Below, piece after piece: positions 9,837 to 33,345 of a stretch of DNA of 64,000 nucleotides. A model generated the notes under the pieces. That model saw only the letters and a program-made list of their open reading frames with translations. It ran no database searches and was not told where the DNA came from. This stretch comes from Escherichia coli (GTDB taxonomy: Bacteria; Pseudomonadota; Gammaproteobacteria; Enterobacterales; Enterobacteriaceae): assembly GCF_050320075.1 (NCBI RefSeq), contig NZ_CP190021.1; one strand, given 5' to 3'. Both the position numbers and the translations under genes were made by a program. Every line of letters begins with the position of its first letter. Positions within the stretch are counted from its first letter, which is position 1.

Positions 9837-10420
9837 TGCCCCGCCCCAAGCTCAAGTCCGATGACGAGGTACTCGAGGCCGCCACCGTAGTGCTGAAGCG
9901 TTGCGGTCCCATAGAGTTCACGCTCAGCGGAGTAGCAAAGGAGGTGGGGCTCTCCCGCGCAGCGTTAATCCAGCGCTTCACCAACCGCGATACGCTGCTG
10001 GTGAGGATGATGGAGCGCGGCGTCGAGCAGGTGCGGCATTACCTGAATGCGATACCGATAGGCGCAGGGCCGCAAGGGCTCTGGGAATTTTTGCAGGTGC
10101 TCGTTCGGAGCATGAACACTCGCAACGACTTCTCGGTGAACTATCTCATCTCCTGGTACGAGCTCCAGGTGCCGGAGCTACGCACGCTTGCGATCCAGCG
10201 GAACCGCGCGGTGGTGGAGGGGATCCGCAAGCGACTGCCCCCAGGTGCTCCTGCGGCAGCTGAGTTGCTCCTGCACTCGGTCATCGCTGGCGCGACGATG
10301 CAGTGGGCCGTCGATCCGGATGGTGAGCTAGCTGATCATGTGCTGGCTCAGATCGCTGCCATCCTGTGTTTAATGTTTCCCGAACACGACGATTTCCAAC
10401 TCCTCCAGGCACATGCGTAA
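9836..10420 (+). CDS. mphR(A): TetR-family repressor MphR(A)
   Basis: 194-aa ORF immediately after mrx. Confidence 0.9.
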   Translation: MPRPKLKSDDEVLEAATVVLKRCGPIEFTLSGVAKEVGLSRAALIQRFTNRDTLLVRMMERGVEQVRHYLNAIPIGAGPQGLWEFLQVLVRSMNTRNDFSVNYLISWYELQVPELRTLAIQRNRAVVEGIRKRLPPGAPAAAELLLHSVIAGATMQWAVDPDGELADHVLAQIAAILCLMFPEHDDFQLLQAHA

Positions 10421-10858
10421 ACGGAGGTGTGCAGAGTCCCTGCGGCAGGCGACGAACACGACCGTCGTCGATTAGTACCGGTACGGTCGGTGGTATCGAA
10501 GTCTTGATCACCACTCAGGTCTACGGCTTACAAATGGTGACCATCCCGATACTTGCGTCAGAGCACCGGGCCGATTCTTTGACAGTGAATCACTCCCGTA
10601 AGGTTGTGCCGGTGTGGGTGTCCCGGGTCGAGACGATACTCCGCCAATGCGCCCAGCAAACAACCTGGCCATCGCAGGTGGTGGGGAGCGGTGTGGCGGA
10701 TGAGTTGGACAAGTTGGTGTAGCAGCACGAGCACGGCGAGATAACATCGCAGGAGTTCGACATGCTCAAGAGACAGCTGATTGCGAATCGCGATGCAGAT
10801 TCATAACCCGATTGCGGGTTGGCTTCACTCCACCATCACCGAGCAGACTAGCACGGCG

Positions 10859-11297
10859 GGCTCTGTTGCAAAGATTGGCGGCAGTCAGAGGTAGGCTGTC
10901 GCTCTGCGCCGATCAGGCGGCTGCTGCGAAATGGTGGTTGAGCATGCCCATGGCCTCCGTCAGCGCCGAGGGCCCAATGCCAAAAGCTCTCTCCACAAGG
11001 CGCACCTCGCCCCTGATGCCGGGCTGCAGGCACCAGGGGCGAGCCTGTCCTTTGCGCAGGGCTCGCATGACTTCGAATCCCTTGATCGTGGCATAGGCCG
11101 TGGGGATCGATTTGAAACCGCGCACCGGCTTGATCAGTATCTTGAGCTTTCCGTGATCGGCCTCGATCACGTTATTGAGATACTTCACCTGCCGGTGGGC
11201 CGTCTCCCGGTCCAGCTTTCCTTCGCGCTTCAATTCGGTGATCGCTGCACCATAGCTCGGCGCTTTGTCGGTATTGAGCGTGGCAGGCTTTTCCCAG
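10859..11297 (-). mobile_element. IS6100 remnant (IR plus 3' part of tnpA), truncated by IS26 copy 3
   Basis: GGCTCTGTTGCAAAGATTGGCGGCAGTCAGAGG end at 10859; IS6-family tnpA C-terminal translation on the minus strand runs into the IS26 terminal repeat. Confidence 0.8.
10913..11297 (-). pseudogene. tnpA: IS6100 transposase 3' fragment
   Basis: Translation WEKPATLNTDKAPSYGAAITELKREGK... is IS6-family but distinct from IS26; the N-terminal 16 residues of the ORF are read from the IS26 end. Confidence 0.8.
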
Positions 11298-12550: not shown

Positions 12551-12816
12551 TTCCAGTCATCCTCCGGCCAGATGAGCTTTCTGAGGCGCTGAAAGTCGGC
12601 GTCAATGAGCTCCTGTCTCTTTATGGCATTCATTGAGGCATAGCCATTTATGGCCAGTTCATGCCAGAAGATCAGCACGGCTCCGGCTTTGGCTGACTCG
12701 CAGAGATAAATCGCGCCCTGGCTGTCCAGATTGCATTCCCGGATGCGTCGTTCCGTAAACCGGGTTAGTTGTTCATAGCTGAGTGAAAACACCCTTTCTT
12801 CATCCATCCTGCACAC
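12547..12816 (-). CDS. Hypothetical protein, first gene of a two-gene operon
   Basis: 89-aa ORF translationally coupled to the truncated downstream gene. Confidence 0.5.
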   Translation of the reverse strand: MCRMDEERVFSLSYEQLTRFTERRIRECNLDSQGAIYLCESAKAGAVLIFWHELAINGYASMNAIKRQELIDADFQRLRKLIWPEDDWK

Positions 12817-12837
12817 TCCATCTGATAATGTTCTTAA

Positions 12838-12937
12838 AGGTAAAAATCACATCCTGCATGATTTGTGTGTTATTGATTTATGATAATATCAGGTATGGTT
12901 TTATATTTAATGGTGAAAATCACATCAGATATGATTT
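12838..12937. promoter_or_regulatory. Two ~26-bp direct repeats (GGTRAAAATCACATC-N4-ATGATTT) in an AT-rich intergenic region; candidate operator/res sub-sites
   Basis: Repeats at 12838-12863 and 12911-12937 read from sequence. Confidence 0.5.
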
Positions 12938-13375
12938 TATGTGTGCTGCTTAATTATCATATCTCCTGCCCGTTCTCTGCCGCACAGATCCGGTTTCCGG
13001 CTGTTACGGATCTTCCTCTCCCTCCGCACAGCGCCATCTCCCGTCAGCACAACATGTAGTGCTGAATTCAGCTGCTGATGACACTATATGTTGTGTCATC
13101 TCCCTGACCTGTGATGCGCCGCGCAGGGGCGGAAAACAGCGATATGATGATTTTCTCAGCGTGGTACACTTCCGGAAAGTTGTGATATTCCGGAAAGTCG
13201 GATCTGACGGAAACGGCTCTCCGGTAATTTAACGGCGTGGTTATATGGATGCTTGTTATCATGGTGATGATGATAACGGCATGATGTTATCAGACGGCGT
13301 GACGGTAAGGGCAGTGATGATGGATGACGTTATCGCATGACCGTCCCTGCCCGGAAAAGAAAAAAGGAGTCACCC

Positions 13376-13789
13376 ATGTTTTTTATTGAGAATGAAGGTC
13401 AGGCTGTCGCCGGAACGGATTACTGGCAGTCTGTACAGGCGCAGGCCGGATATGTCTACCTCAGCTGGAATGCCGGCGCAGCCAGGCTGCTTGTCCCGGA
13501 TGCGGCAAAACATTTACTCAGGGAGATGCGGGGGGCTGAGTACGTCATCATCAGTAAGGGAGCACTGCATGGCCGCGATGCGCTGGAACTGGTATTTGAA
13601 GACGGCAGCGATGCGCCGTTTGTGATCCACATGCTGAGTGAGCAGTGCGATCGCCTGCTCCCCGAAAACAACCAGGGAGGGGGTTTTGTTGTCACCGTCT
13701 GGACGCGTGGAGGTAACCAGCTCCGTTATCCGGGAAAGTACCGTGTTGTGGAAAACCTGCCCGACGTTTCCCCGTGGAGTGAACACTGA
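13376..13789 (+). CDS. Hypothetical protein translationally coupled to the downstream recombinase
   Basis: ATG at 13376 with AGGAG RBS (ORF track starts earlier at 13337); stop TGA overlaps TGATATG start of the recombinase. Confidence 0.6.
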   Translation: MFFIENEGQAVAGTDYWQSVQAQAGYVYLSWNAGAARLLVPDAAKHLLREMRGAEYVIISKGALHGRDALELVFEDGSDAPFVIHMLSEQCDRLLPENNQGGGFVVTVWTRGGNQLRYPGKYRVVENLPDVSPWSEH

Positions 13790-18431: not shown

Positions 18432-19358
18432 ATGCCAAACTGGTGCAGTAACCGTATGCATTTTTCTGGTGAACCGGCACAGATTGCTGAGATTAAACGA
18501 CTGGCCAGTGGTGCCGTCACACCGTTTTATCGCCGCGCCACAAATGAAGGTATTCAGCTGTTTCTGGCCGGAAGTGCCGGACTTCTGCAGACCACTGAAG
18601 ATGTGTGGTTTGAACCGTGCCCCGGACTGACGGCTGCCGGACGTGGCGTTGTATCGCCGGAGAATATCGCGTTCACCCGCTGGCTGACACACCTGCAGAA
18701 CGGTGTACTGCTGGATGAGCAAAACTGCCTGATGCTGCATGAACTCTGGCTGCAGAGCGGTACTGGCCAGCGTCGCTGGGAAGGATTACCGGACGATGTC
18801 AGGGATACCATCACCGCGCTTTTCACCGCAAAAAGAGGTGACTGGTGTGGCTTCTGGAGTAACGAGGATGTATCGGTGTGGTGGAACCGTCTGTGTGACA
18901 ACGTACTGCCGGAAAAAACCATGCCGTTTGACCTGCTGACGGTTCTGCCCACCCGCCTTGATGTTGAAGTGAATGGCTTTAACGGTGGTGTTCTGAACGG
19001 TGTTCCTTCTGCATATCACTGGTATACCGAACAGTATGGCGTGAAGTGGCCTTGTGGGTATGACCTGAATATCAGCAGTCAGGGAGACAACTTCATTCAG
19101 GTTGATTTCGACACGCCGTGGTGTCAGCCGGAAAGCGACGTTATTGCAGAATTAAGCCGCCGTTTCAGCTGCACGCTGGAGCACTGGTATGCCGAACAGG
19201 GCTGTGATTTCTGTGGCTGGCAGTTGTATGAGCGCGGAGAGCTCGTTGATGTGCTGTGGGGGGAGCTGGAATGGTCTTCCCCGACAGATGACGATGAGCT
19301 GCCGGAAGTCACCGGACCTGCGTGGATAGTCGACAAGGTGGCGCATTATGGCGGATGA
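18432..19358 (+). CDS. Conserved leading-region protein of unknown function (cysteine/tryptophan-rich)
   Basis: ATG at 18432 with GGAGAA RBS (MPNWCSNRMHFSGEP...); track ORF starts earlier at 18387. Confidence 0.65.
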   Translation: MPNWCSNRMHFSGEPAQIAEIKRLASGAVTPFYRRATNEGIQLFLAGSAGLLQTTEDVWFEPCPGLTAAGRGVVSPENIAFTRWLTHLQNGVLLDEQNCLMLHELWLQSGTGQRRWEGLPDDVRDTITALFTAKRGDWCGFWSNEDVSVWWNRLCDNVLPEKTMPFDLLTVLPTRLDVEVNGFNGGVLNGVPSAYHWYTEQYGVKWPCGYDLNISSQGDNFIQVDFDTPWCQPESDVIAELSRRFSCTLEHWYAEQGCDFCGWQLYERGELVDVLWGELEWSSPTDDDELPEVTGPAWIVDKVAHYGG

Positions 19359-19742
19359 AGTATGACGGAGACGGGCGGGCTACCGCCCGTTTCTTTTCCG
19401 GTAAAGGATGTCGCCGTGCTCCTCTTTTTACTGCGCCGGCTGACGCGGCGCGGCATAAACGCTGCCTGTGGTCAGTGTCCCGCGTCCGGCCGGGCACGGG
19501 ACGGGCGCTTTTACCGCTCCCGGCTGGCGTCGGTGACAGTGTACGCCAGCCTGTCGCCCTTTTCTGATGAACGCCCTTCAAGCCGCTTTCGCGGCATAAC
19601 CTTGCCGTCAGAAAGACGACGGCTGCGGTATTCCACGGTCGGCCTGACCCGTTACCGGACGCGGTGAACAGCCCACAGGCAGCGGGGAACGGGCACCACA
19701 GGGGTGCCCTCCCGGTGCCCTCTGTAAGAGAAGGAGTTTGGT

Positions 19743-20426
19743 ATGTCCCGTTTTGTCCTCGGTAACTGCATCGATGTTATGGCCCGTATCCCTGATAACG
19801 CCATTGATTTCATCCTCACCGACCCGCCATATCTCGTCGGTTTCCGTGACCGTTCCGGGCGCACCATCGCCGGCGATAAAACCGATGAGTGGCTGCAACC
19901 GGCCTGTAATGAAATGTTCCGCGTACTGAAAAAAGACGCGTTAATGGTGAGCTTCTACGGCTGGAACCGCGTCGATCGCTTTATGGCCGCCTGGAAAAAT
20001 GCGGGATTCAGCGTTGTTGGTCACCTGGTCTTCACCAAAAACTACACATCGAAGGCCGCATATGTGGGCTATCGCCACGAATGCGCCTACATCCTGGCAA
20101 AAGGCCGTCCACGTCTGCCACAAAACCCGCTGCCGGACGTGCTGGGCTGGAAATATTCGGGCAATCGCCATCACCCGACGGAAAAGCCCGTTACCAGCCT
20201 GCAACCGCTGATTGAGAACTTCACACACCCGAACGCAATTGTGCTGGACCCGTTTGCAGGCAGCGGCTCAACCTGCGTCGCCGCCCTCCAGTCCGGACGC
20301 CGGTATATCGGTATCGAGCTGCTTGAGCAGTATCACCGTGCCGGGCAGCAACGCCTTGCCGCCGTGCAACGGGCCATGCAGCAGGGGGCCGCGAATGATG
20401 ACTGGTTTATGCCGGAGGCTGCGTAA
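19743..20426 (+). CDS. Orphan beta-class DNA amino-methyltransferase (N6-adenine or N4-cytosine)
   Basis: Motif IV DPPY at residues 27-30 precedes motif I (LDPFAGSGST) near the C-terminus; no restriction endonuclease gene adjacent. Confidence 0.85.
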   Translation: MSRFVLGNCIDVMARIPDNAIDFILTDPPYLVGFRDRSGRTIAGDKTDEWLQPACNEMFRVLKKDALMVSFYGWNRVDRFMAAWKNAGFSVVGHLVFTKNYTSKAAYVGYRHECAYILAKGRPRLPQNPLPDVLGWKYSGNRHHPTEKPVTSLQPLIENFTHPNAIVLDPFAGSGSTCVAALQSGRRYIGIELLEQYHRAGQQRLAAVQRAMQQGAANDDWFMPEAA

Positions 20427-20648
20427 ATGAACTATGCAGGACACGAAAAACTGCGCGCCGAAGTGGCGGAGGTGGCCAATGCCATGTGCGACCTGCGTAC
20501 AACCATGAATGAGATGGAGCAGCGGTACAGCTTTAATGCCGACACCCTGCCGGAACGTCTGGTGCGTCAGACGCTGTTTCGCGCAAACCGCCTCCTGATG
20601 GAGGCATATACCGAAATTCTGGAACTGGAAGCGTGCTTTAAAGATTGA
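20427..20648 (+). CDS. Hypothetical small protein coupled to the methyltransferase
   Basis: 73-aa ORF starting at the MTase stop (TAAATG). Confidence 0.5.
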   Translation: MNYAGHEKLRAEVAEVANAMCDLRTTMNEMEQRYSFNADTLPERLVRQTLFRANRLLMEAYTEILELEACFKD

Positions 20649-20661
20649 GAAGGAGACGAGA

Positions 20662-21096
20662 ATGTACGGAACATGCGAAACGCTATGCCGGGAGCTGGCA
20701 GTAAAGTATCCGGGAGACATGCCGCTGATGCTGGTTATCTGGTCCCCGGAAGAGATTCAGGCCCTCGCTGACGGAATGGATATTTCCCTGTCCGATCATG
20801 AAATCAGAACCGTCCTGGCGCGCCTGGAGGACATCCCGGAAGACCAGCGGACTGAATCCGGTATTTCTTCCGGCGTGGCGATGGAGATCATCAATAACGT
20901 GAGCGAAAACCGCCAGGTGACCGTCCCTGCTGAACTGCTGGCGTCCCTGATTCAGACCGCTGAACAGGCATTGTGGAAACGTGAATGGGCCGCCCGGGAT
21001 CATGGCCTCGCCGTCCCGGAATGCGTCACCCGCCGTCAGGCGGTGATTAATCAGGCCCGCACCCTGCTGAAAAACAACAGACACGAAAACGACTGA
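20662..21096 (+). CDS. Hypothetical protein, paralog of the 22808-23230 gene
   Basis: 144-aa ORF with RBS AAGGAGACGAGAA-ATG identical to that of the paralog; shared RQVTVPA motif. Confidence 0.65.
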   Translation: MYGTCETLCRELAVKYPGDMPLMLVIWSPEEIQALADGMDISLSDHEIRTVLARLEDIPEDQRTESGISSGVAMEIINNVSENRQVTVPAELLASLIQTAEQALWKREWAARDHGLAVPECVTRRQAVINQARTLLKNNRHEND

Positions 21097-21141
21097 TGTT
21101 ATCGCCGCCTCCGGGCGGCGATTCAGGGAGAACGATTAATC

Positions 21142-21918
21142 ATGAACGAAAACACAACACTGAACGCACTGATTTGTCGTCACGCCCGCAACCTGCTGCT
21201 GGCGCAGGGCTGGCCGGAAGAGACGGATGTTGACCAGCGGAACCCGAACCATCCGGGCTGGATCAGCATTTATGTTCTGCTGGATGCGCCCCGGCTGGCG
21301 ACGTTACTTATCAACCGTCACGGCGGCGCACTGCCGCCGCTCCTGGCCTCCGCCATTCACAAACTGACCGGAACCGGGGCGGAACTTGTACTGTCCGGCA
21401 GTCAGTGGCAGTCGCTGCCGGTACTTCCGGCAGACGGAACGCAGGTGTCTTTCCCGTATGCCGGTGAGTGGCTGGCAGAGGACGAAATCAGGGCAGTTCT
21501 TGATGCGGTACGCGATGCAGTACGCTGTGTCAGTTACCAGGTGGCAGAAGATACGCGGCGTATCCGGGCGGCGCTGACCACCACCGGTCAGACGTTACTG
21601 ACCCGCCAGACGCGCCGCTTTCGCCTGGTCGTGAAGGAGAGCGATCACCCCTGCTGGCTCGATGAGGACGACGAAAACCTGCCCGTGGTGCTCGACGCCA
21701 TCCTGAACCGGGGCGCACGTTTTTCGGCGGTGGAAATGTATCTGGTCAGCGATTGTATTGAACATATCCTGTCCAGTTGGCTGGCCTGGGATGTGCTGCG
21801 TATACCGGATGAACCGCCCCGCCGCTGGTTTGACCGTGGTGTTCTGCGGGAGGTGGTCCGGGAAGCCCGGAACGAAATCCGCAGCATGGCGGATGCCCTG
21901 GCAAAAATCCGGAAATGA
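21142..21918 (+). CDS. Hypothetical protein
   Basis: 258-aa ORF with GGGAGA RBS. Confidence 0.6.
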
Positions 21919-21974
21919 TGACACTGGCGGGGTAAATCCCCGCCTTTTTCCTGCCGGTCCCCGGACAGAGCACA

Positions 21975-22315
21975 AAGGACGTCGCCGCCGGCTCCGCTTT
22001 ACCCGGCCATGCAGGGCATGGCCTTGTGGTTTTTCAGTTATGTGGCCGCCGTGTCGTGTGCGGGCTGTGCCGTGCCTCCATCTTAGCCGGGCTGGCAGGG
22101 ATGCAAGGGTACGCTTCGCCGCTGCGGTCACCCGGTCCCTCCTTCCCGTCTGCCGTGATTTTCCGGTCGTTCACCCGCTCAGATTTCGCGGTCTCACCCT
22201 CCAACTCCCGCCAGCCGTGTGCGTCAGGCTGCGGCTTCCCTTGCGCCCTGTGCATCCCCACCTTATCGCCCGGCTTTTATGGAGGCACGGCACCGCCCGG
22301 TGTCGCGGAATATGT
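21975..22315. repeat. Leading-region repeat family A, copy 1 (~340 bp), candidate ssDNA promoter (Frpo/ssi-like)
   Basis: Near-identical to 28922-29265; ends immediately upstream of the KlcA-like gene. Confidence 0.65.
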
Positions 22316-22335
22316 GAACAACGGAGGAAAACATC

Positions 22336-22761
22336 ATGCAATATGCGAAACCTGTCACTCTGAACGTTGAAGAGTGCGACCGTCTGTCTTTTCTGCCTTA
22401 CCTGTTTGGCCAGGATTTTCTGTATGCCGAAGCGTCTGTATACGCGCTGGCGAAACAAATGATGCCGGAATATGAAGGCGGATTCTGGCACTTCATCCGA
22501 CTGCCGGACGGTGGCGGTTACATGATGCCGGATGGCGACCGTTTTCACATGGTGAACGGTGCAAACTGGTTTGACCGTACCGTGAGTGCTGATGCCGCAG
22601 GCATCATCCTTACCTCCCTTGTGATTAACCGCCAGTTGTGGCTGTACCACGACAGCGGGGATGCAGGACTGACCCAGCTTTACCGGATGCGCGATGCGCA
22701 GTTGTGGCGTCACATCGAATTTCACCCTGAATGCAACGCGATTTACGCAGCACTGGACTGA
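22336..22761 (+). CDS. klcA: KlcA/ArdB-family anti-restriction protein
   Basis: 141-aa ORF with pattern LSFLPYLFG...[19 protein letters not shown]...[10 protein letters not shown] resembling RK2 KlcA from memory. Confidence 0.75.
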
Positions 22762-22807
22762 TTAACGGACGGGGCGGCAATGCCGCCCCTGTAAAGGAGA
22801 CGAGAAC

Positions 22808-23230
22808 ATGTACTGTACTGTTAAAGAAATTATCCGCGATGTACTGGATACAGACGTGCCGGACAGTGAATGCGTTTTTGCCGTGGTGCTGACCCGTGGG
22901 GATGTGCGCCACATAGCCCAGGACTGGAGTCTGACAGACGATGAGCTGGAAACCGTCATGCAGCGGCTGGACGATGCCTTTGAATATGGTGCGGATGTCA
23001 GCGTTGTTCACGGCGTTGTTCGTGAACTGATGGAAGAAAAGCGCGCCAGCCGTCAGGTGACAGTCCCGGCGGTGATGCTGGAAAAAGTGTTGGCGCTGGC
23101 AGGCAGTGAAATGAAGCGCCTGTATGCCGTCGGGAGTGAGAACGGGGGCGACGGTGATGCGTTCGTCAGGGAAGAACGCGAAGCAATGGACGTTGTGTTA
23201 CAGGCGCTGGACGGGGAGCACATGTCATGA
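22808..23230 (+). CDS. Hypothetical protein, paralog of the 20662-21096 gene
   Basis: 140-aa ORF; shared RBS and RQVTVPA motif. Confidence 0.65.
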   Translation: MYCTVKEIIRDVLDTDVPDSECVFAVVLTRGDVRHIAQDWSLTDDELETVMQRLDDAFEYGADVSVVHGVVRELMEEKRASRQVTVPAVMLEKVLALAGSEMKRLYAVGSENGGDGDAFVREEREAMDVVLQALDGEHMS

Positions 23231-23418
23231 ATATCAGCACAGAAACCCGCGAAATTCTGCGCAATTACAAAGCCGTGATTAATGCGCGGCGTCGTGAAAT
23301 GGGGCAGAAACCGCTCACCACTGCGCAGATTGTTGATGAAATCTGCGATTTTGTGGCGAATCAGCAGGCGGTTTTCCTCGGTGGTCACTATATCCTTCAG
23401 GGCAGCAGAAACAGGTGA
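23227..23418 (+). CDS. Hypothetical small protein, translationally coupled (TCATGA overlap)
   Basis: 63-aa ORF. Confidence 0.4.
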   Translation: MNISTETREILRNYKAVINARRREMGQKPLTTAQIVDEICDFVANQQAVFLGGHYILQGSRNR

Positions 23419-23620
23419 TACAGGGCAGGCGGTGGAGGCCGCCTGTCAGCCCGCGCGAAAACCCCTGGCAGGCTGACGCCTGCCGGAAATGCGGGGTGCA
23501 GCGCCTGCGGCGCTGCCGGCCCGGCTTTCCGGTCAGAAGGTAGTGTATGGCTGTATGCAGGGAACAGGTGTGATATTCCGTGACACTGTCACCGTTTCTG
23601 GCTGTCTTTTATTGCGCCCA

Positions 23621-24125
23621 CTTCGGCTCCCGGCTGCCTGGCGGCATCCGGTCGTCAGGCCCGACTCCGACAGGCAGCTGCTGGCGCACCCGCCAGTCTC
23701 CGCCGAACCCGCTGGCGCGGTTTCGGGCTGCCGCTACGGTCCGATGCGTGAAAACCCGGCTTGCAGCGACCGTTCCGGTCGCGCCGCCCCTGTCGCGCCG
23801 TGACCTGCGCTCCCTGCACACCTGACGGTGTGTGAGGAAACTGCGCCTGATGGCGCAGCAGTCTTCCCTCCTGCCACCACCCCTGCGGCCTGTTTCCCGC
23901 TGTGGACTTTCCGGGGGGCAGACGTAACCCCCTCCCGTTCCATCTGTCCAGGGTGAGATGCACCGGCCACAAAATTTTTAGCCATGAACCCGGCTAAAAA
24001 TTTTGCGTCCGCCCCCGGACAGCTGTCCCGTGAGGCGGTAAACGGGCCCCCATCGGAAAGGTCCACTGCGGGGAGAAACCCCTGTGAAGTGGACGGCAGG
24101 AGGAGCTTTCGCTCCTCTGAAGGGG
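23621..24125. repeat. Leading-region repeat family B, copy 1 (~505 bp), candidate ssDNA promoter upstream of ssb
   Basis: Highly similar to 29964-30465 and partly to 33013-33345; contains a 14-bp perfect hairpin CAAAATTTTTAGCC-N8-GGCTAAAAATTTTG. Confidence 0.65.
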
Positions 24126-24186
24126 CACATGAACGTCCCGTCGCCGGTATCCGGTTTATCTCACATCTTTCAGTCAGGAGGTTCTT

Positions 24187-24714
24187 ATGAGTGCACGTGG
24201 TATCAACAAGGTCATCCTCGTCGGGCGTCTGGGCAATGATCCGGAAGTCCGTTACATCCCCAACGGGGGCGCAGTGGCAAACCTGCAGGTGGCCACATCA
24301 GAAAGCTGGCGTGACAAACAGACGGGGGAGATGCGGGAGCAGACGGAATGGCACCGCGTGGTGCTGTTCGGCAAGCTCGCGGAAGTGGCAGGTGAATATC
24401 TGCGCAAGGGTGCGCAGGTCTACATCGAAGGTCAGCTTCGCACCCGTAGCTGGGAAGATAACGGTATCACCCGTTACGTCACTGAAATTCTTGTTAAGAC
24501 CACGGGCACCGTGCAGATGCTGGGACGTGCACCACAGCAGAACGCTCAGGCGCAACCGAAGCCTCAGCAGAATGGGCAGCCACAGAGTGCTGACGCGACG
24601 AAAAAAGGTGGCGCGAAAACGAAAGGCCGTGGACGTAAGGCCGCGCAGCCAGAGCCTCAGCCGCAACCGCCGGAGGGGGAGGATTACGGGTTTTCAGACG
24701 ATATCCCGTTCTGA
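24187..24714 (+). CDS. ssb: Single-stranded DNA-binding protein
   Basis: 175-aa [36 protein letters not shown]... with Q/P-rich linker and acidic DDIPF tail. Confidence 0.95.
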
Positions 24715-28921: not shown

Positions 28922-29265
28922 AAGGAAGTCGCCGGCGGCTCCGCTTTTACCCGGCCATGCGGGGCATGGCCTTGTGGGGTTTCAGCTCTGTGGCCTCAGC
29001 GTCGTGTGCGGGCTGTGCCGTGCCTCCATCTTAGCCGGGCTGGCAGGGATGCAAGGGTACGCTTCGCCGCTGCGGTCACCCGGTCCCTCCTTCCCGTCTG
29101 CCGTGATTTTCCGGTCGTTCGTCCGCTCAGGTTTCGCGGCCTCACCCTGCAACTCCCGTCAGCCGTGTGCGTCAGGCTGCGGCTTCCCTTGCGCCCCTGC
29201 ATCCCCGCCTTATCGCCCGGCTTTTATGGAGGCACGGCACCGCCCGGTGTCGCAGAACATGTGAC
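28922..29265. repeat. Leading-region repeat family A, copy 2, candidate ssDNA promoter upstream of ardA
   Basis: Near-identical to 21975-22315. Confidence 0.65.
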
Positions 29266-29963: not shown

Positions 29964-30465
29964 CTTCGGCTCCCGGCTGCCTGGCGGCATCCGGTCGTCA
30001 GGCCCGACTCCGACAGGCAGCTGCTGGCGCACCCGCCAGTCTCCGCCGAACCCGCTGGCGCGGTTTCGGGCTGCCGCTACGGTCCGATGTCTGAAAAACC
30101 AGGCTTGCAGCGACCGTTCCGGTCGCGCCGCCCCTGTCGCGCCGGAAACGGCGCTCCCTGCACACCTGACGGTGTGTAAGGCCACTGCGCCTGATGGCGC
30201 AGTCAACCCTTCCGCCGCCACCCCTGCGGCCTGTTTCCCGCTGTGGACTTTCCGGGGGCTGGAGTAACCACATCCCGTTTCAGCAGTCCAGGGGAAGATA
30301 TACCGTCCACAAAATTTTTAGCCATAAACCCGGCAAAAAATTTTGCGTCCGCCCCCGGACAGCTGCCCCGTGACGTGGTGACGGACGCCCCATCGGAAAG
30401 GTCCACTGCGGGGAGAAACCCCGAAGAAGTGGACGGCAGAAGGGGCTTTCGCCCCTCCGGGGAGC
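29964..30465. repeat. Leading-region repeat family B, copy 2
   Basis: Aligned by eye to copy 1 over ~500 bp. Confidence 0.65.
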
Positions 30466-32912: not shown

Positions 32913-33012
32913 TTTTGCTTGTAAATGTCGTGCGGTTTTCTCTGTTTTCACCTGTGCGGGAGTGGTGTGCCAGTGACCACCACATGCCATTGTTGTGCCG
33001 TCGTTTTTCTTC

Positions 33013-33345
33013 AGTCGCGCCGTATGCGGCGCTCCCTGCACACCTTACGGTGTGTAAGGCCACTGCGCCTGATGGCGCAGCTGTCTCTGCCTGTCTGCCG
33101 CCGCACTGCGGCCTGTTCTCCGCAGACGGACTTTCCGGGGGTACATACATGACCACATCCCGTTTCAGTCGTCCAGGGGGGAGATGTACCAGCCACAAAA
33201 CTTTTTGCCGCAGGCGTCAAAAACTTTTGCGTCTGCCCCCGGACAACTGCCCCGTGACGTGGTGAGCGTCCCCCGTCGGAAAGGTCCACTGCGGGGAAAT
33301 CCCCGAAGACCCGGACGGCAGAAGGAGCTTCGCTCCTCCGGGAAA
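33013..33345. repeat. Leading-region repeat family B, copy 3 (partial, 3' two-thirds)
   Basis: Aligns to 23792-24125 of copy 1, including a degenerate version of the hairpin. Confidence 0.6.

Follow-up and report, generated by a model that had tools for sequence, protein, structure and literature searches.

Two ancient DUF1380 paralogues among the leading-region genes of an Escherichia coli IncI1-type conjugative plasmid

Gene content and promoters of the locus

The DNA analyzed here, a stretch of 64,000 nt from Escherichia coli contig NZ_CP190021.1 (called the window below), was identified as leading-region DNA of a conjugative plasmid of IncI1 type. Between 17 and 27 kb it showed 100% identity to IncI-type MOBP/MPF_I plasmids, many of them from Salmonella and E. 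coli. A preliminary description of this DNA had reported two related ORFs, and both were present on the plus strand (Table 1). RefSeq labels the two alike as 'DUF1380 family protein', and they are referred to as A and B. The nikA and nikB genes were located at approximately 34.9 kb and beyond; measured from the nikA start, B lies about 11.6 kb and A about 13.7 kb away, in the leading region near oriT, which is transferred first. Both genes are on the same strand as ssb, psiB, psiA and ardA and are thus oriented for transcription off the transferred strand. Their operons adjoin ssb, psiB and a ParB-like gene.

Table 1. Genes and non-coding features around the DUF1380 pair (positions in the window)
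Feature	Position	Strand	Remarks
Structured non-coding region	19360..19742	-	upstream of methylase; matches 'class 3' ssDNA promoter of pESBL M.EcoGIX (PMC12672017)
Orphan adenine DNA methyltransferase, M.EcoGIX/YfbB/YfeA homologue	19743..20426	+	operon 1, first gene; RefSeq 'DNA methylase'
YubE-family small protein	20427..20648	+	73 aa; Hp9 of pESBL; phrog_4830, E 1e-33
SD word AAGGAGACGAGA, copy 1	20650..20661	+	ATG of DUF1380-A directly after
DUF1380-A	20662..21096	+	144 aa; YcgB/YfcB/YubF type; Hp10 of pESBL; net charge -9
YchA-like protein	21142..21918	+	operon 1, last gene; 258 aa; Hp11 of pESBL; phrog_8919, E 6e-137
Terminator-like GC hairpin, then T run	21926..21944	+	end of operon 1
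Structured non-coding element	21998..22317	-	upstream of klcA; matches 'class 2' ssDNA promoter
KlcA/ArdB anti-restriction protein	22336..22761	+	operon 2, first gene; RefSeq annotation
GC hairpin GGGGCGGC-AAT-GCCGCCCC	22771..22789	+	between klcA and DUF1380-B; read off the sequence
SD word AAGGAGACGAGA, copy 2	22794..22805	+	followed by AC, then ATG of DUF1380-B
DUF1380-B	22808..23230	+	140 aa; YcjA/YcgC/YfeC/YubJ type; Hp12 of pESBL; net charge -16
Hp13	23227..23418	+	operon 2, last gene; 63 aa; start overlaps B stop (ATGA)
ssi/Frpo-type ('class 1') single-strand promoter element	23621..24117	-	upstream of ssb (24187-24714)

A is the third gene of operon 1 and B the second gene of operon 2. 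In operon 1 the yubE start abuts the methylase stop codon, and A begins 13 nt past the yubE stop. Homologues of the methylase and of YubE in related loci carry PF01555 and PF27407 (YubE), respectively; no Pfam match was obtained for the YchA-like protein. The M.EcoGIX methylase of pESBL is protective against restriction (PMC4288162). KlcA matched PF03230 (Antirestrict, E 2.9e-26) and the anti-restriction family phrog_10132. The two ORFs had been described as flanking klcA, which was accurate for B, whose start lies 46 nt past the klcA stop. A, however, is 1.2 kb upstream of klcA, and the 258-aa gene, the terminator-like hairpin and the structured promoter region lie between them. The hairpin between klcA and B was kept in distant loci, at times with a T run behind it.

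This arrangement is known. Plasmid F has the same order (methylase, YubE, DUF1380, a 777-bp gene, an antirestriction gene, a 423-bp DUF1380 gene, a 192-bp gene and ssb), as does the near-identical plasmid pESBL (PMC4288162, Table 2), and the DUF1380 pair of F/pESBL (YubF/YcgB/YfcB/Hp10 and YubJ/YcjA/YcgC/YfeC/Hp12 types) showed no material difference from that in the window. The window is therefore one more copy of the F/pESBL arrangement, and the pair has already been annotated in thousands of plasmids; copy B at an identity of at least 90% was intact in more than 5000 of 72,556 plasmid records. In Supplementary Table 1 of Samuel et al. 2024 (Nature 635:186) both clades are among the largest uncharacterised leading-region families, A as family 7 (3957 ORFs; DUF1380/YcgB/YfcB/YubF) and B as a second family of 3145 ORFs (YcjA/YcgC/YfeC/YubJ, 'PF07128 family'). 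The table keeps the two separate, and some labels within the B family are those of KlcA and of a methylase. The pair is ordinary save for the function of DUF1380.

A search of 19300-24250 for sigma-70 consensus promoters found none, and an Rfam scan of 17-36 kb returned no family. The window did contain hairpin regions and repeats that match the published promoters of class 2, class 3 and ssi type. When the transferred (-) strand was folded as DNA, the region upstream of the methylase gave -110.5 kcal/mol (z = -7.0), and 21925-22335 gave z = -4.6. The element upstream of klcA has a second copy upstream of ardA at 28946-29264 (direct repeats D1 and D7, 94-96% identical), in line with the reported likeness of the klcA and ardA hairpins (PMC12672017). 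Another ssi/Frpo-type copy spans 29964-30457 and a partial one 32973-33274, the repeat families being D2-D5 and D8; ssi1-3 of ColIb-P9/pESBL are class 1 single-strand promoters (PMC12672017).

In pESBL, six operons were induced up to approximately 500-fold in recipients, and ssDNA promoters were mapped by 5'-RACE upstream of M.EcoGIX (class 3), upstream of klcA and ardA (class 2) and at ssi1-3 (class 1) (PMC12672017). The pESBL operons of A and B were both induced in the recipient off ssDNA promoters in the same study. Since the operons containing both genes are induced early in pESBL, we infer that A and B are expressed early. In a study of pO157 exposed to ciprofloxacin, the antirestriction gene was up 33-fold and the adjacent DUF1380 gene 23-fold, and the DUF1380 protein was undetected in the pO157 proteome (PMC11125564).

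Homology and predicted structure of the DUF1380 pair

A and B are ancient paralogues of the DUF1380 family (PF07128). A matched the complete Pfam model (E 2.8e-52, model positions 1-137 of 137), and B matched it with residues 1-99 only (E 3.2e-5, model positions 1-102). Both also matched phrog_9024, A with E 7e-71. BLASTP aligned the two proteins with 31% identity across 111 aa (E 1e-10). When the A-clade and B-clade profiles were compared with hhalign, 137 of approximately 142 columns were aligned at 99.8% probability (E 6e-28), and the homology extended into the C-terminal half of B, which Pfam had missed. The coding DNA was 44% identical overall and 36% identical at third codon positions. 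It had been proposed in advance that the idea of diverged paralogues should be given up if similarity was confined to the 5' UTR and the first codons. This was clearly not the case, as the alignment spans the whole length, and full-length homology bore out the description of the ORFs as diverged paralogues.

The shared motifs that had been noticed were also found, the MY-T N-terminus being MYGT in A and MYCT in B and the internal motif being RQVTVPAELL in A (residues 84-93) and RQVTVPAVML in B (residues 82-91). M-Y-G-T, and R-x-V-x-V-P followed by L, are the most conserved motifs of the family, at least 70% conserved in either clade. The DUF1380 family is confined to Enterobacterales (281 representatives). 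KlcA and M.EcoGIX-like methylases have a far wider taxonomic spread.

The preliminary description had further assigned the two genes an identical ribosome-binding context. A 13-nt word, AAGGAGACGAGAA, is indeed common to both and was the longest exact DNA word shared by A and B with 60 nt upstream included; its 13th base (A) is, in copy A, the A of the ATG. The spacing from the SD to the start differs by 2 nt, because AC intervenes before the ATG in B and nothing does in A, so this part of the claim did not strictly hold. The 12-mer occurred exactly twice in the 64-kb window (20650 and 22794) with no antisense copy within it; with one mismatch allowed, at least two matches were obtained in 3 of 100 shuffles. 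Distant A-type and B-type genes have other purine-rich SD contexts, and the word was rejected as a family-wide regulatory signal. The shared 13-nt word is specific to this plasmid lineage, and strong Shine-Dalgarno sites are kept by both copies.

AlphaFold2 models of A (pLDDT 85.6) and B (pLDDT 81.9) had the same helix order. Both are predicted to be small, acidic, all-helical proteins in which roughly the first 80 residues form one domain and the invariant R-x-V-x-V-P linker leads to a C-terminal hairpin of antiparallel helices. The relative placing of the two structural parts is uncertain because the pTM was 0.55-0.58. In a Foldseek search of AFDB50 the only significant matches were DUF1380 members, and neither sequence nor fold revealed similarity of A or B to known anti-defence proteins, PADLOC models or solved structures. 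NCBIfam and PADLOC searches gave nothing meaningful, and tblastn of A against a phage collection gave no match despite the PHROG family match.

Several weak hits were discarded. The best match in a PDB sequence and profile search was a de novo designed protein and was judged spurious. A weak match to acyl-carrier-protein-like PF00550 (PP-binding) was obtained for A (E 0.028) and was likewise put down to chance; the serine equivalent to the phosphopantetheine-attachment residue (D-S-L) was not conserved across the family alignment. A FabG2 match with E 0.0023, set against a cut-off of 339 bits, was rejected as chance. No functional study of DUF1380 was found in the literature, where gene-name searches gave name collisions only; DUF1380 was unmentioned in the 2026 preprints on the leading region, and the M.EcoGIX paper was silent on downstream genes.

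Operon linkage, copy number and selection

Twenty-four related loci were compared, all of them found with A-type queries, so that the sample covers loci with an A-type gene. The DUF1380 copies formed two deep clades, each fixed to its own operon position. The A clade was always behind methylase-YubE (24/24 loci), and the B clade was found only directly after KlcA. Eighteen of the 24 loci had a YchA-like gene after A. The number of DUF1380 copies per locus ranged from 1 to 4 (four in one plasmid), and B was variably present. KlcA is not dependent on B, because 5 of the 14 loci that contain KlcA have no B, among them L007 with a 95%-identical KlcA. In L007 Hp13 comes directly after the same hairpin and SD with B absent; overall, Hp13 was present while B was absent in 10 of the 24 loci. 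Where ArdA occupied the slot of KlcA, B was absent too.

The dN/dS values were 0.44 for A and 0.29 for B, compared to 0.09 for KlcA and 0.11 for the methylase, and were well below 1 for either clade at two divergence depths. A and B are under purifying selection, yet they evolve faster than their neighbours. In a diverged lineage, A and B had kept 54-58% and 47-48% protein identity, respectively, compared to 86-91% kept by the methylase and 73-78% by KlcA. Full-length ORFs with the conserved motifs persisted down to approximately 25% identity. Many cluster members were truncated, frameshifted or rearranged. One natural in-frame A-YchA fusion was found (P0241); the long members P0241, P0246, P0255 and P0121 were considered as Rosetta-stone fusions and set aside as sporadic deletions, chimeras and internal duplications, weak evidence at most. 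The two deep, operon-fixed clades and their dN/dS values support retention of the two diverged copies over the long term. The earlier interpretation, which went on to suggest distinct specificities, for example against different host targets, was thus supported in part, namely for paralogy and retention. A few residues were conserved in one clade only, and the combination of deep clades, selection and clade-specific residues fits subfunctionalisation.

Possible functions of the DUF1380 proteins

Our preferred explanation, put forward tentatively and at somewhat below even probability, is that the DUF1380 pair are accessory establishment or anti-defence factors that bind proteins, the clades having different partners. 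The transferred (-) strand is the template for both operons. A large hairpin-forming ssDNA promoter would stand ahead of each, and therefore A and B should be produced within minutes after the DNA enters the recipient; they would be made before complementary strand synthesis. They would most likely act by stoichiometric protein binding, neither by catalysis nor by nucleic-acid binding, in support of establishment or against defences in the new host, and the A and B clades would have different binding partners. We infer the protein-binding mode, the host target and the different specificities. By TnSeq of pESBL neither gene was needed for maintenance or for transfer to E. coli K-12 (PMC4288162), a result compatible with a recipient-specific role and no proof of one.

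ArdA, KlcA/ArdB, PsiB, plasmid SSB and M.EcoGIX resemble DUF1380 in lying within approximately 14 kb of oriT, in transferred-strand orientation and in belonging to putative ssDNA-promoter operons, and are likewise small and mostly acidic. In contrast, DUF1380 resembles none of them in sequence or fold, and its taxonomic range (Enterobacterales) is much narrower. A bolder form of the proposal, possible and on balance rather doubtful, is that DUF1380 proteins are unrecognised conjugation-specific anti-defence or host-manipulating effectors, diversified by tandem duplication (1-4 copies per leading region), the A clade being one specificity class, with the ssDNA methylase, and the B clade a second, with KlcA. 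KlcA-B may then be an anti-restriction cassette of two genes that is mobile and can trade places with ArdA at the same class-2 single-strand promoter.

The strict linkage of A to the methylase and of B to KlcA would suit a partner role equally well. Each copy might serve a protein of its own operon as accessory subunit, chaperone or moderator (A with the non-specific ssDNA methylase M.EcoGIX, YubE or YchA; B with KlcA or Hp13), duplication having given two adaptors for two plasmid proteins, not for host targets. The tight or overlapping packing of methylase/YubE, YubE/A and B/Hp13 suggests translational coupling, and the A-YchA fusion and the loss of B along with KlcA where ArdA replaces it point the same way. 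However, we consider this explanation unlikely. KlcA lacks B in the 5 loci noted above, L007 included, and cloned KlcA/ArdB is active by itself. The evolution of DUF1380 is far faster than that of the supposed partners, which is unusual in an obligate subunit, and the linkage of A was determined in loci retrieved with A-type queries, beyond which a methylase without A would lie. M.EcoGIX was reported to have been studied with artificial constructs (PMC7736820), and its deletion phenotype was ascribed to the methylase itself (PMC4288162).

A role in the establishment machinery of the plasmid itself, unrelated to host defence, appears quite improbable. DUF1380 might in that case bind SSB, RNA polymerase, primase or the ssDNA promoters, and could thereby set the moment at which early genes are switched off or at which single-stranded DNA becomes double-stranded. 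The position of A and B in putatively early operons beside ssb, psiB and a ParB-like gene would agree with this, and other non-defence roles are known from the leading region, where HerB/YfjB reprogrammes host transcription (PMC13370423) and DNA processing is coupled to early expression (10.64898/2026.01.09.698686). Core parts are, however, expected to evolve slowly and to be fixed in copy, whereas the two genes have the highest dN/dS of the module, B is often missing and there are 1-4 copies. Both were dispensable in the TnSeq experiment (PMC4288162), and direct DNA binding is unlikely for proteins of such acidity (net charge -9 and -16). That the copies have no current function, and merely hitch-hike and slowly decay in strongly selected operons, would explain the TnSeq result (PMC4288162), the constraint relaxed relative to the neighbours, the many damaged cluster members and the clean loss of B in some plasmids, but is very hard to reconcile with dN/dS well below 1 in both clades at two depths, intact motif-bearing ORFs down to approximately 25% identity, the more than 5000 plasmid records with intact B and the strong Shine-Dalgarno sites on both copies.

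Few uncharacterised genes are more abundant than those of DUF1380 in the part of IncF and IncI plasmids that is transferred first. These plasmids are the chief vehicles of ESBL and other resistance genes in Enterobacteriaceae. This analysis describes no new kind of system; it contributes evolutionary structure along with hypotheses that can be tested, and to the table of Samuel et al. 2024 it adds the full-length homology of A and B, the two position-linked clades and the variable copy number. If the DUF1380 proteins are establishment or anti-defence factors, they would help to account for the host range of plasmids and be candidate targets against the spread of resistance.

Homology of the two DUF1380 genes and their start regions

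The two small plasmid ORFs, DUF1380-A and DUF1380-B, encode proteins that were aligned by BLASTP with 31% identity across 111 aa (E 1e-10), while the coding DNAs were 44% identical overall and 36% identical at third codon positions. The Pfam DUF1380 model matched DUF1380-A over its full length (E 2.8e-52) and DUF1380-B over residues 1-99 (E 3.2e-5). When profiles were made separately from the relatives of each ORF, 137 columns were aligned with 99.8% probability (E 6e-28). The AlphaFold2 models (pLDDT 85.6 for A and 81.9 for B) were all-helical, with an antiparallel hairpin at the C-terminal end and the same order of helices, and both proteins were acidic (net charge -9 and -16, respectively). 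Since the similarity was not confined to the 5' end but reached well beyond it, A and B are true paralogues, as proposed in the preliminary description.

That description also gave both ORFs an identical ribosome-binding context. The 12-mer AAGGAGACGAGA indeed precedes both and was found in the 64 kb only at 20650 and 22794; however, the ATG of A directly abuts it and that of B is set off by two bases (AC). The longest exact word common to the two genes, each taken with 60 nt upstream, was the 13-mer AAGGAGACGAGAA. No antisense copy of the Shine-Dalgarno word was found within the window. The word was kept at both copies in close IncI/IncF relatives, but a 56%-identity lineage had TAAGGAGAAAAAC instead and more distant loci did not conserve it either; the match between the two strong initiation regions is thus specific to this lineage and no family signal. 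That the word persists, although synonymous sites between A and B are saturated, could reflect either selection on the efficiency of initiation or gene conversion over a very short tract, both of which are possible.

Features of the DUF1380 region and of a related Citrobacter locus
Feature	Coordinates	Strand	Length	Remarks
DUF1380-A	20662-21096	+	144 aa	
DUF1380-B	22808-23230	+	140 aa	
klcA-upstream element	21998-22317			second copy at 28946-29264, upstream of ardA; 94-96% identity
ssb-upstream element	23621-24117			direct repeats at 29964-30457 and, partly, 32973-33274
GC hairpin	21103-21120			GCCGCC-TCCG-GGCGGC
Terminator-like hairpin	21926-21944			
WP_001348080.1	19362-19667			RefSeq 'hypothetical protein'
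WP_001434357.1	23489-23803			RefSeq 'hypothetical protein'
L024, A-clade tandem pair	10001-10420, 10479-10880			after methylase-YubE
L024, B-clade pair	12630-13052, 13096-13506			after KlcA

Leading region and early operons

Many plasmids of Salmonella and E. coli, typed as IncI-gamma/K1, MOBP, MPF_I, matched window positions 17-27 kb at 100% identity. The RefSeq order, all on the + strand, was DUF1281, DNA methylase, a 73-aa gene (YubE), DUF1380, a 258-aa YchA-like gene, antirestriction protein, DUF1380, a 63-aa gene, ssb, DUF905, ParB-like, psiB, psiA and ardA, followed by nikA/nikB. Of these, the antirestriction gene encodes KlcA/ArdB (PF03230, E 2.9e-26). The stretch is the leading region, which enters the recipient first. 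This gene order was also present in plasmid F, DUF1380 pair included, and in pESBL, where A and B correspond to Hp10 and Hp12 (PMC4288162 Table 2) and the 63-aa gene is Hp13. Copy B was found at ≥90% identity in more than 5000 plasmid records.

For pESBL, recipients examined 15 min after mating showed induction of six leading-region operons, by as much as about 500-fold, and a single-strand DNA promoter was mapped by 5'-RACE for each (PMC12672017). Class 1 comprises ssi1-3/Frpo, class 2 the promoters preceding klcA and ardA, and class 3 the one preceding the methylase gene M.EcoGIX (PMC12672017). The long direct repeats of structured non-coding DNA in the window correspond to the class-2 and ssi/Frpo promoters; Rfam has no model for them. 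Repeats of the ssb element lie upstream of ssb and of two further gene blocks. Folding of the - strand gave z = -4.6 for 21925-22335 and z = -7.0 for 19360-19742. The matching promoter elements, the terminator-like hairpin ending the first operon and the absence of a sigma-70 consensus promoter in 19300-24250 place A in the operon M.EcoGIX-YubE-A-YchA and B in klcA-B-Hp13. The identification of the pair as two DUF1380 paralogues in two early operons of an IncI1 leading region is near certain. Neighbouring genes are tightly joined: YubE begins immediately after the methylase stop, 13 nt lie between the YubE stop and the start of A, and the start of Hp13 overlaps with the stop of B. The GC hairpin between A and the YchA-like gene resembles that between klcA and B. 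Two 'hypothetical protein' genes fall within hairpin-forming promoter regions and are probably spurious calls in structured non-coding DNA.

Transcripts of pO157 of EHEC EDL933 provide independent evidence: ciprofloxacin raised the antirestriction gene 33-fold and the adjoining DUF1380 gene 23-fold; the DUF1380 protein was not detected (PMC11125564). A hypothetical gene rose 125-fold, ssb 7-fold and the methylase 5-fold (PMC11125564, Table 2). These leading-region genes were induced while the plasmid was resident and not transferring (PMC11125564), which would fit single-strand promoters firing on ssDNA exposed by DNA damage.

Clades, copy number and evolutionary rate

When 1.84 billion cluster representatives were searched exhaustively with a profile, only 281 matched at E ≤0.001, many of them fragments, and all significant Foldseek matches in AFDB50 were DUF1380, nearly all from Enterobacterales. 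The neighbour-joining tree showed two deep clades matching operon position. Both conserve M1-Y2-G3-T4, L12, E20, W27, V51, G67, R84-x-V86-x-V88-P89, L93, A100 and L136; conservation in a single clade is limited to a few positions. Among the cluster representatives, we observed as natural variants an in-frame DUF1380-A-YchA fusion (P0241), a B protein with a duplicated C-terminal half (P0121) and one whose helix preceding the RQVTVP motif carries a VVHG tandem expansion (P0142).

Across 24 loci (the IncI reference and 23 related ones), the A-type gene always followed methylase-YubE, and the B-type gene was variably present, only directly behind KlcA. In 5 loci Hp13 followed KlcA directly, without B. 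One of these (L007, 7590-7700) has a 95% identical KlcA, and there the same GC hairpin and AAAGGAG Shine-Dalgarno sequence immediately precede Hp13, indicating precise gain or loss of B. Five further loci (L012, L013, L015, L017 and L019) carry an ArdA-like gene in the klcA-B slot (e.g. L012 5602-6201), and the same Hp13 gene comes next. Together with the two copies of the class-2 promoter in the window, one before klcA and one before ardA, this makes the slot look like an exchangeable anti-restriction cassette. Four DUF1380 genes lie in one leading region of Citrobacter werkmanii NBRC 105721 (L024, contig CIWKM20, 10001-13506). Enterobacterial leading-region contigs in assemblies named Oscillibacter, Oscillospiraceae, Collinsella and Streptomyces morookaense (L007, L008, L009, L011 and L013) most likely reflect contamination or mis-binning.

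Purifying selection acts on both genes, with weaker constraint than on their neighbours: dN/dS was 0.44 for A and 0.29 for B, compared with 0.09 (KlcA), 0.11 (methylase) and 0.18 (YubE). In a diverged lineage, A and B retained 54-58% and 47-48% identity to the window proteins, respectively, whereas the methylase retained 86-91% and KlcA 73-78%.

Possible function of DUF1380

Sequence and profile searches of PDB, NCBIfam and PADLOC gave no meaningful relative, and no functional study of DUF1380 was found in the literature searched. Samuel et al. 2024 listed both clades among the largest uncharacterised leading-region families. By TnSeq in pESBL, neither gene was essential for maintenance or for transfer into K-12 (PMC4288162). 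We tentatively favour the reading that A and B are small protein-binding factors made in the recipient, which would aid establishment or counter defence through clade-specific partners. It is supported by their place in early operons, their relatively fast evolution, their varying copy number, the fact that a laboratory recipient can do without them and the occurrence of KlcA without B. The main rival, which we consider less likely, is that each copy serves a protein of its own operon; strict linkage to position and close packing of the genes speak for it, KlcA without B and the faster evolution of DUF1380 against it. A housekeeping or timing role seems less likely still, and absence of function very improbable.

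The sequence, the gene pair and the family assignment were already public in annotation, and plasmid F has the same pair. The present analysis adds that the B clade, despite its poor match, is homologous over its full length and that the two clades are linked to position; it also adds the variation in copy number and the relative rates of evolution. The pair is real but ordinary, and its remaining interest lies in what this very abundant plasmid family does.
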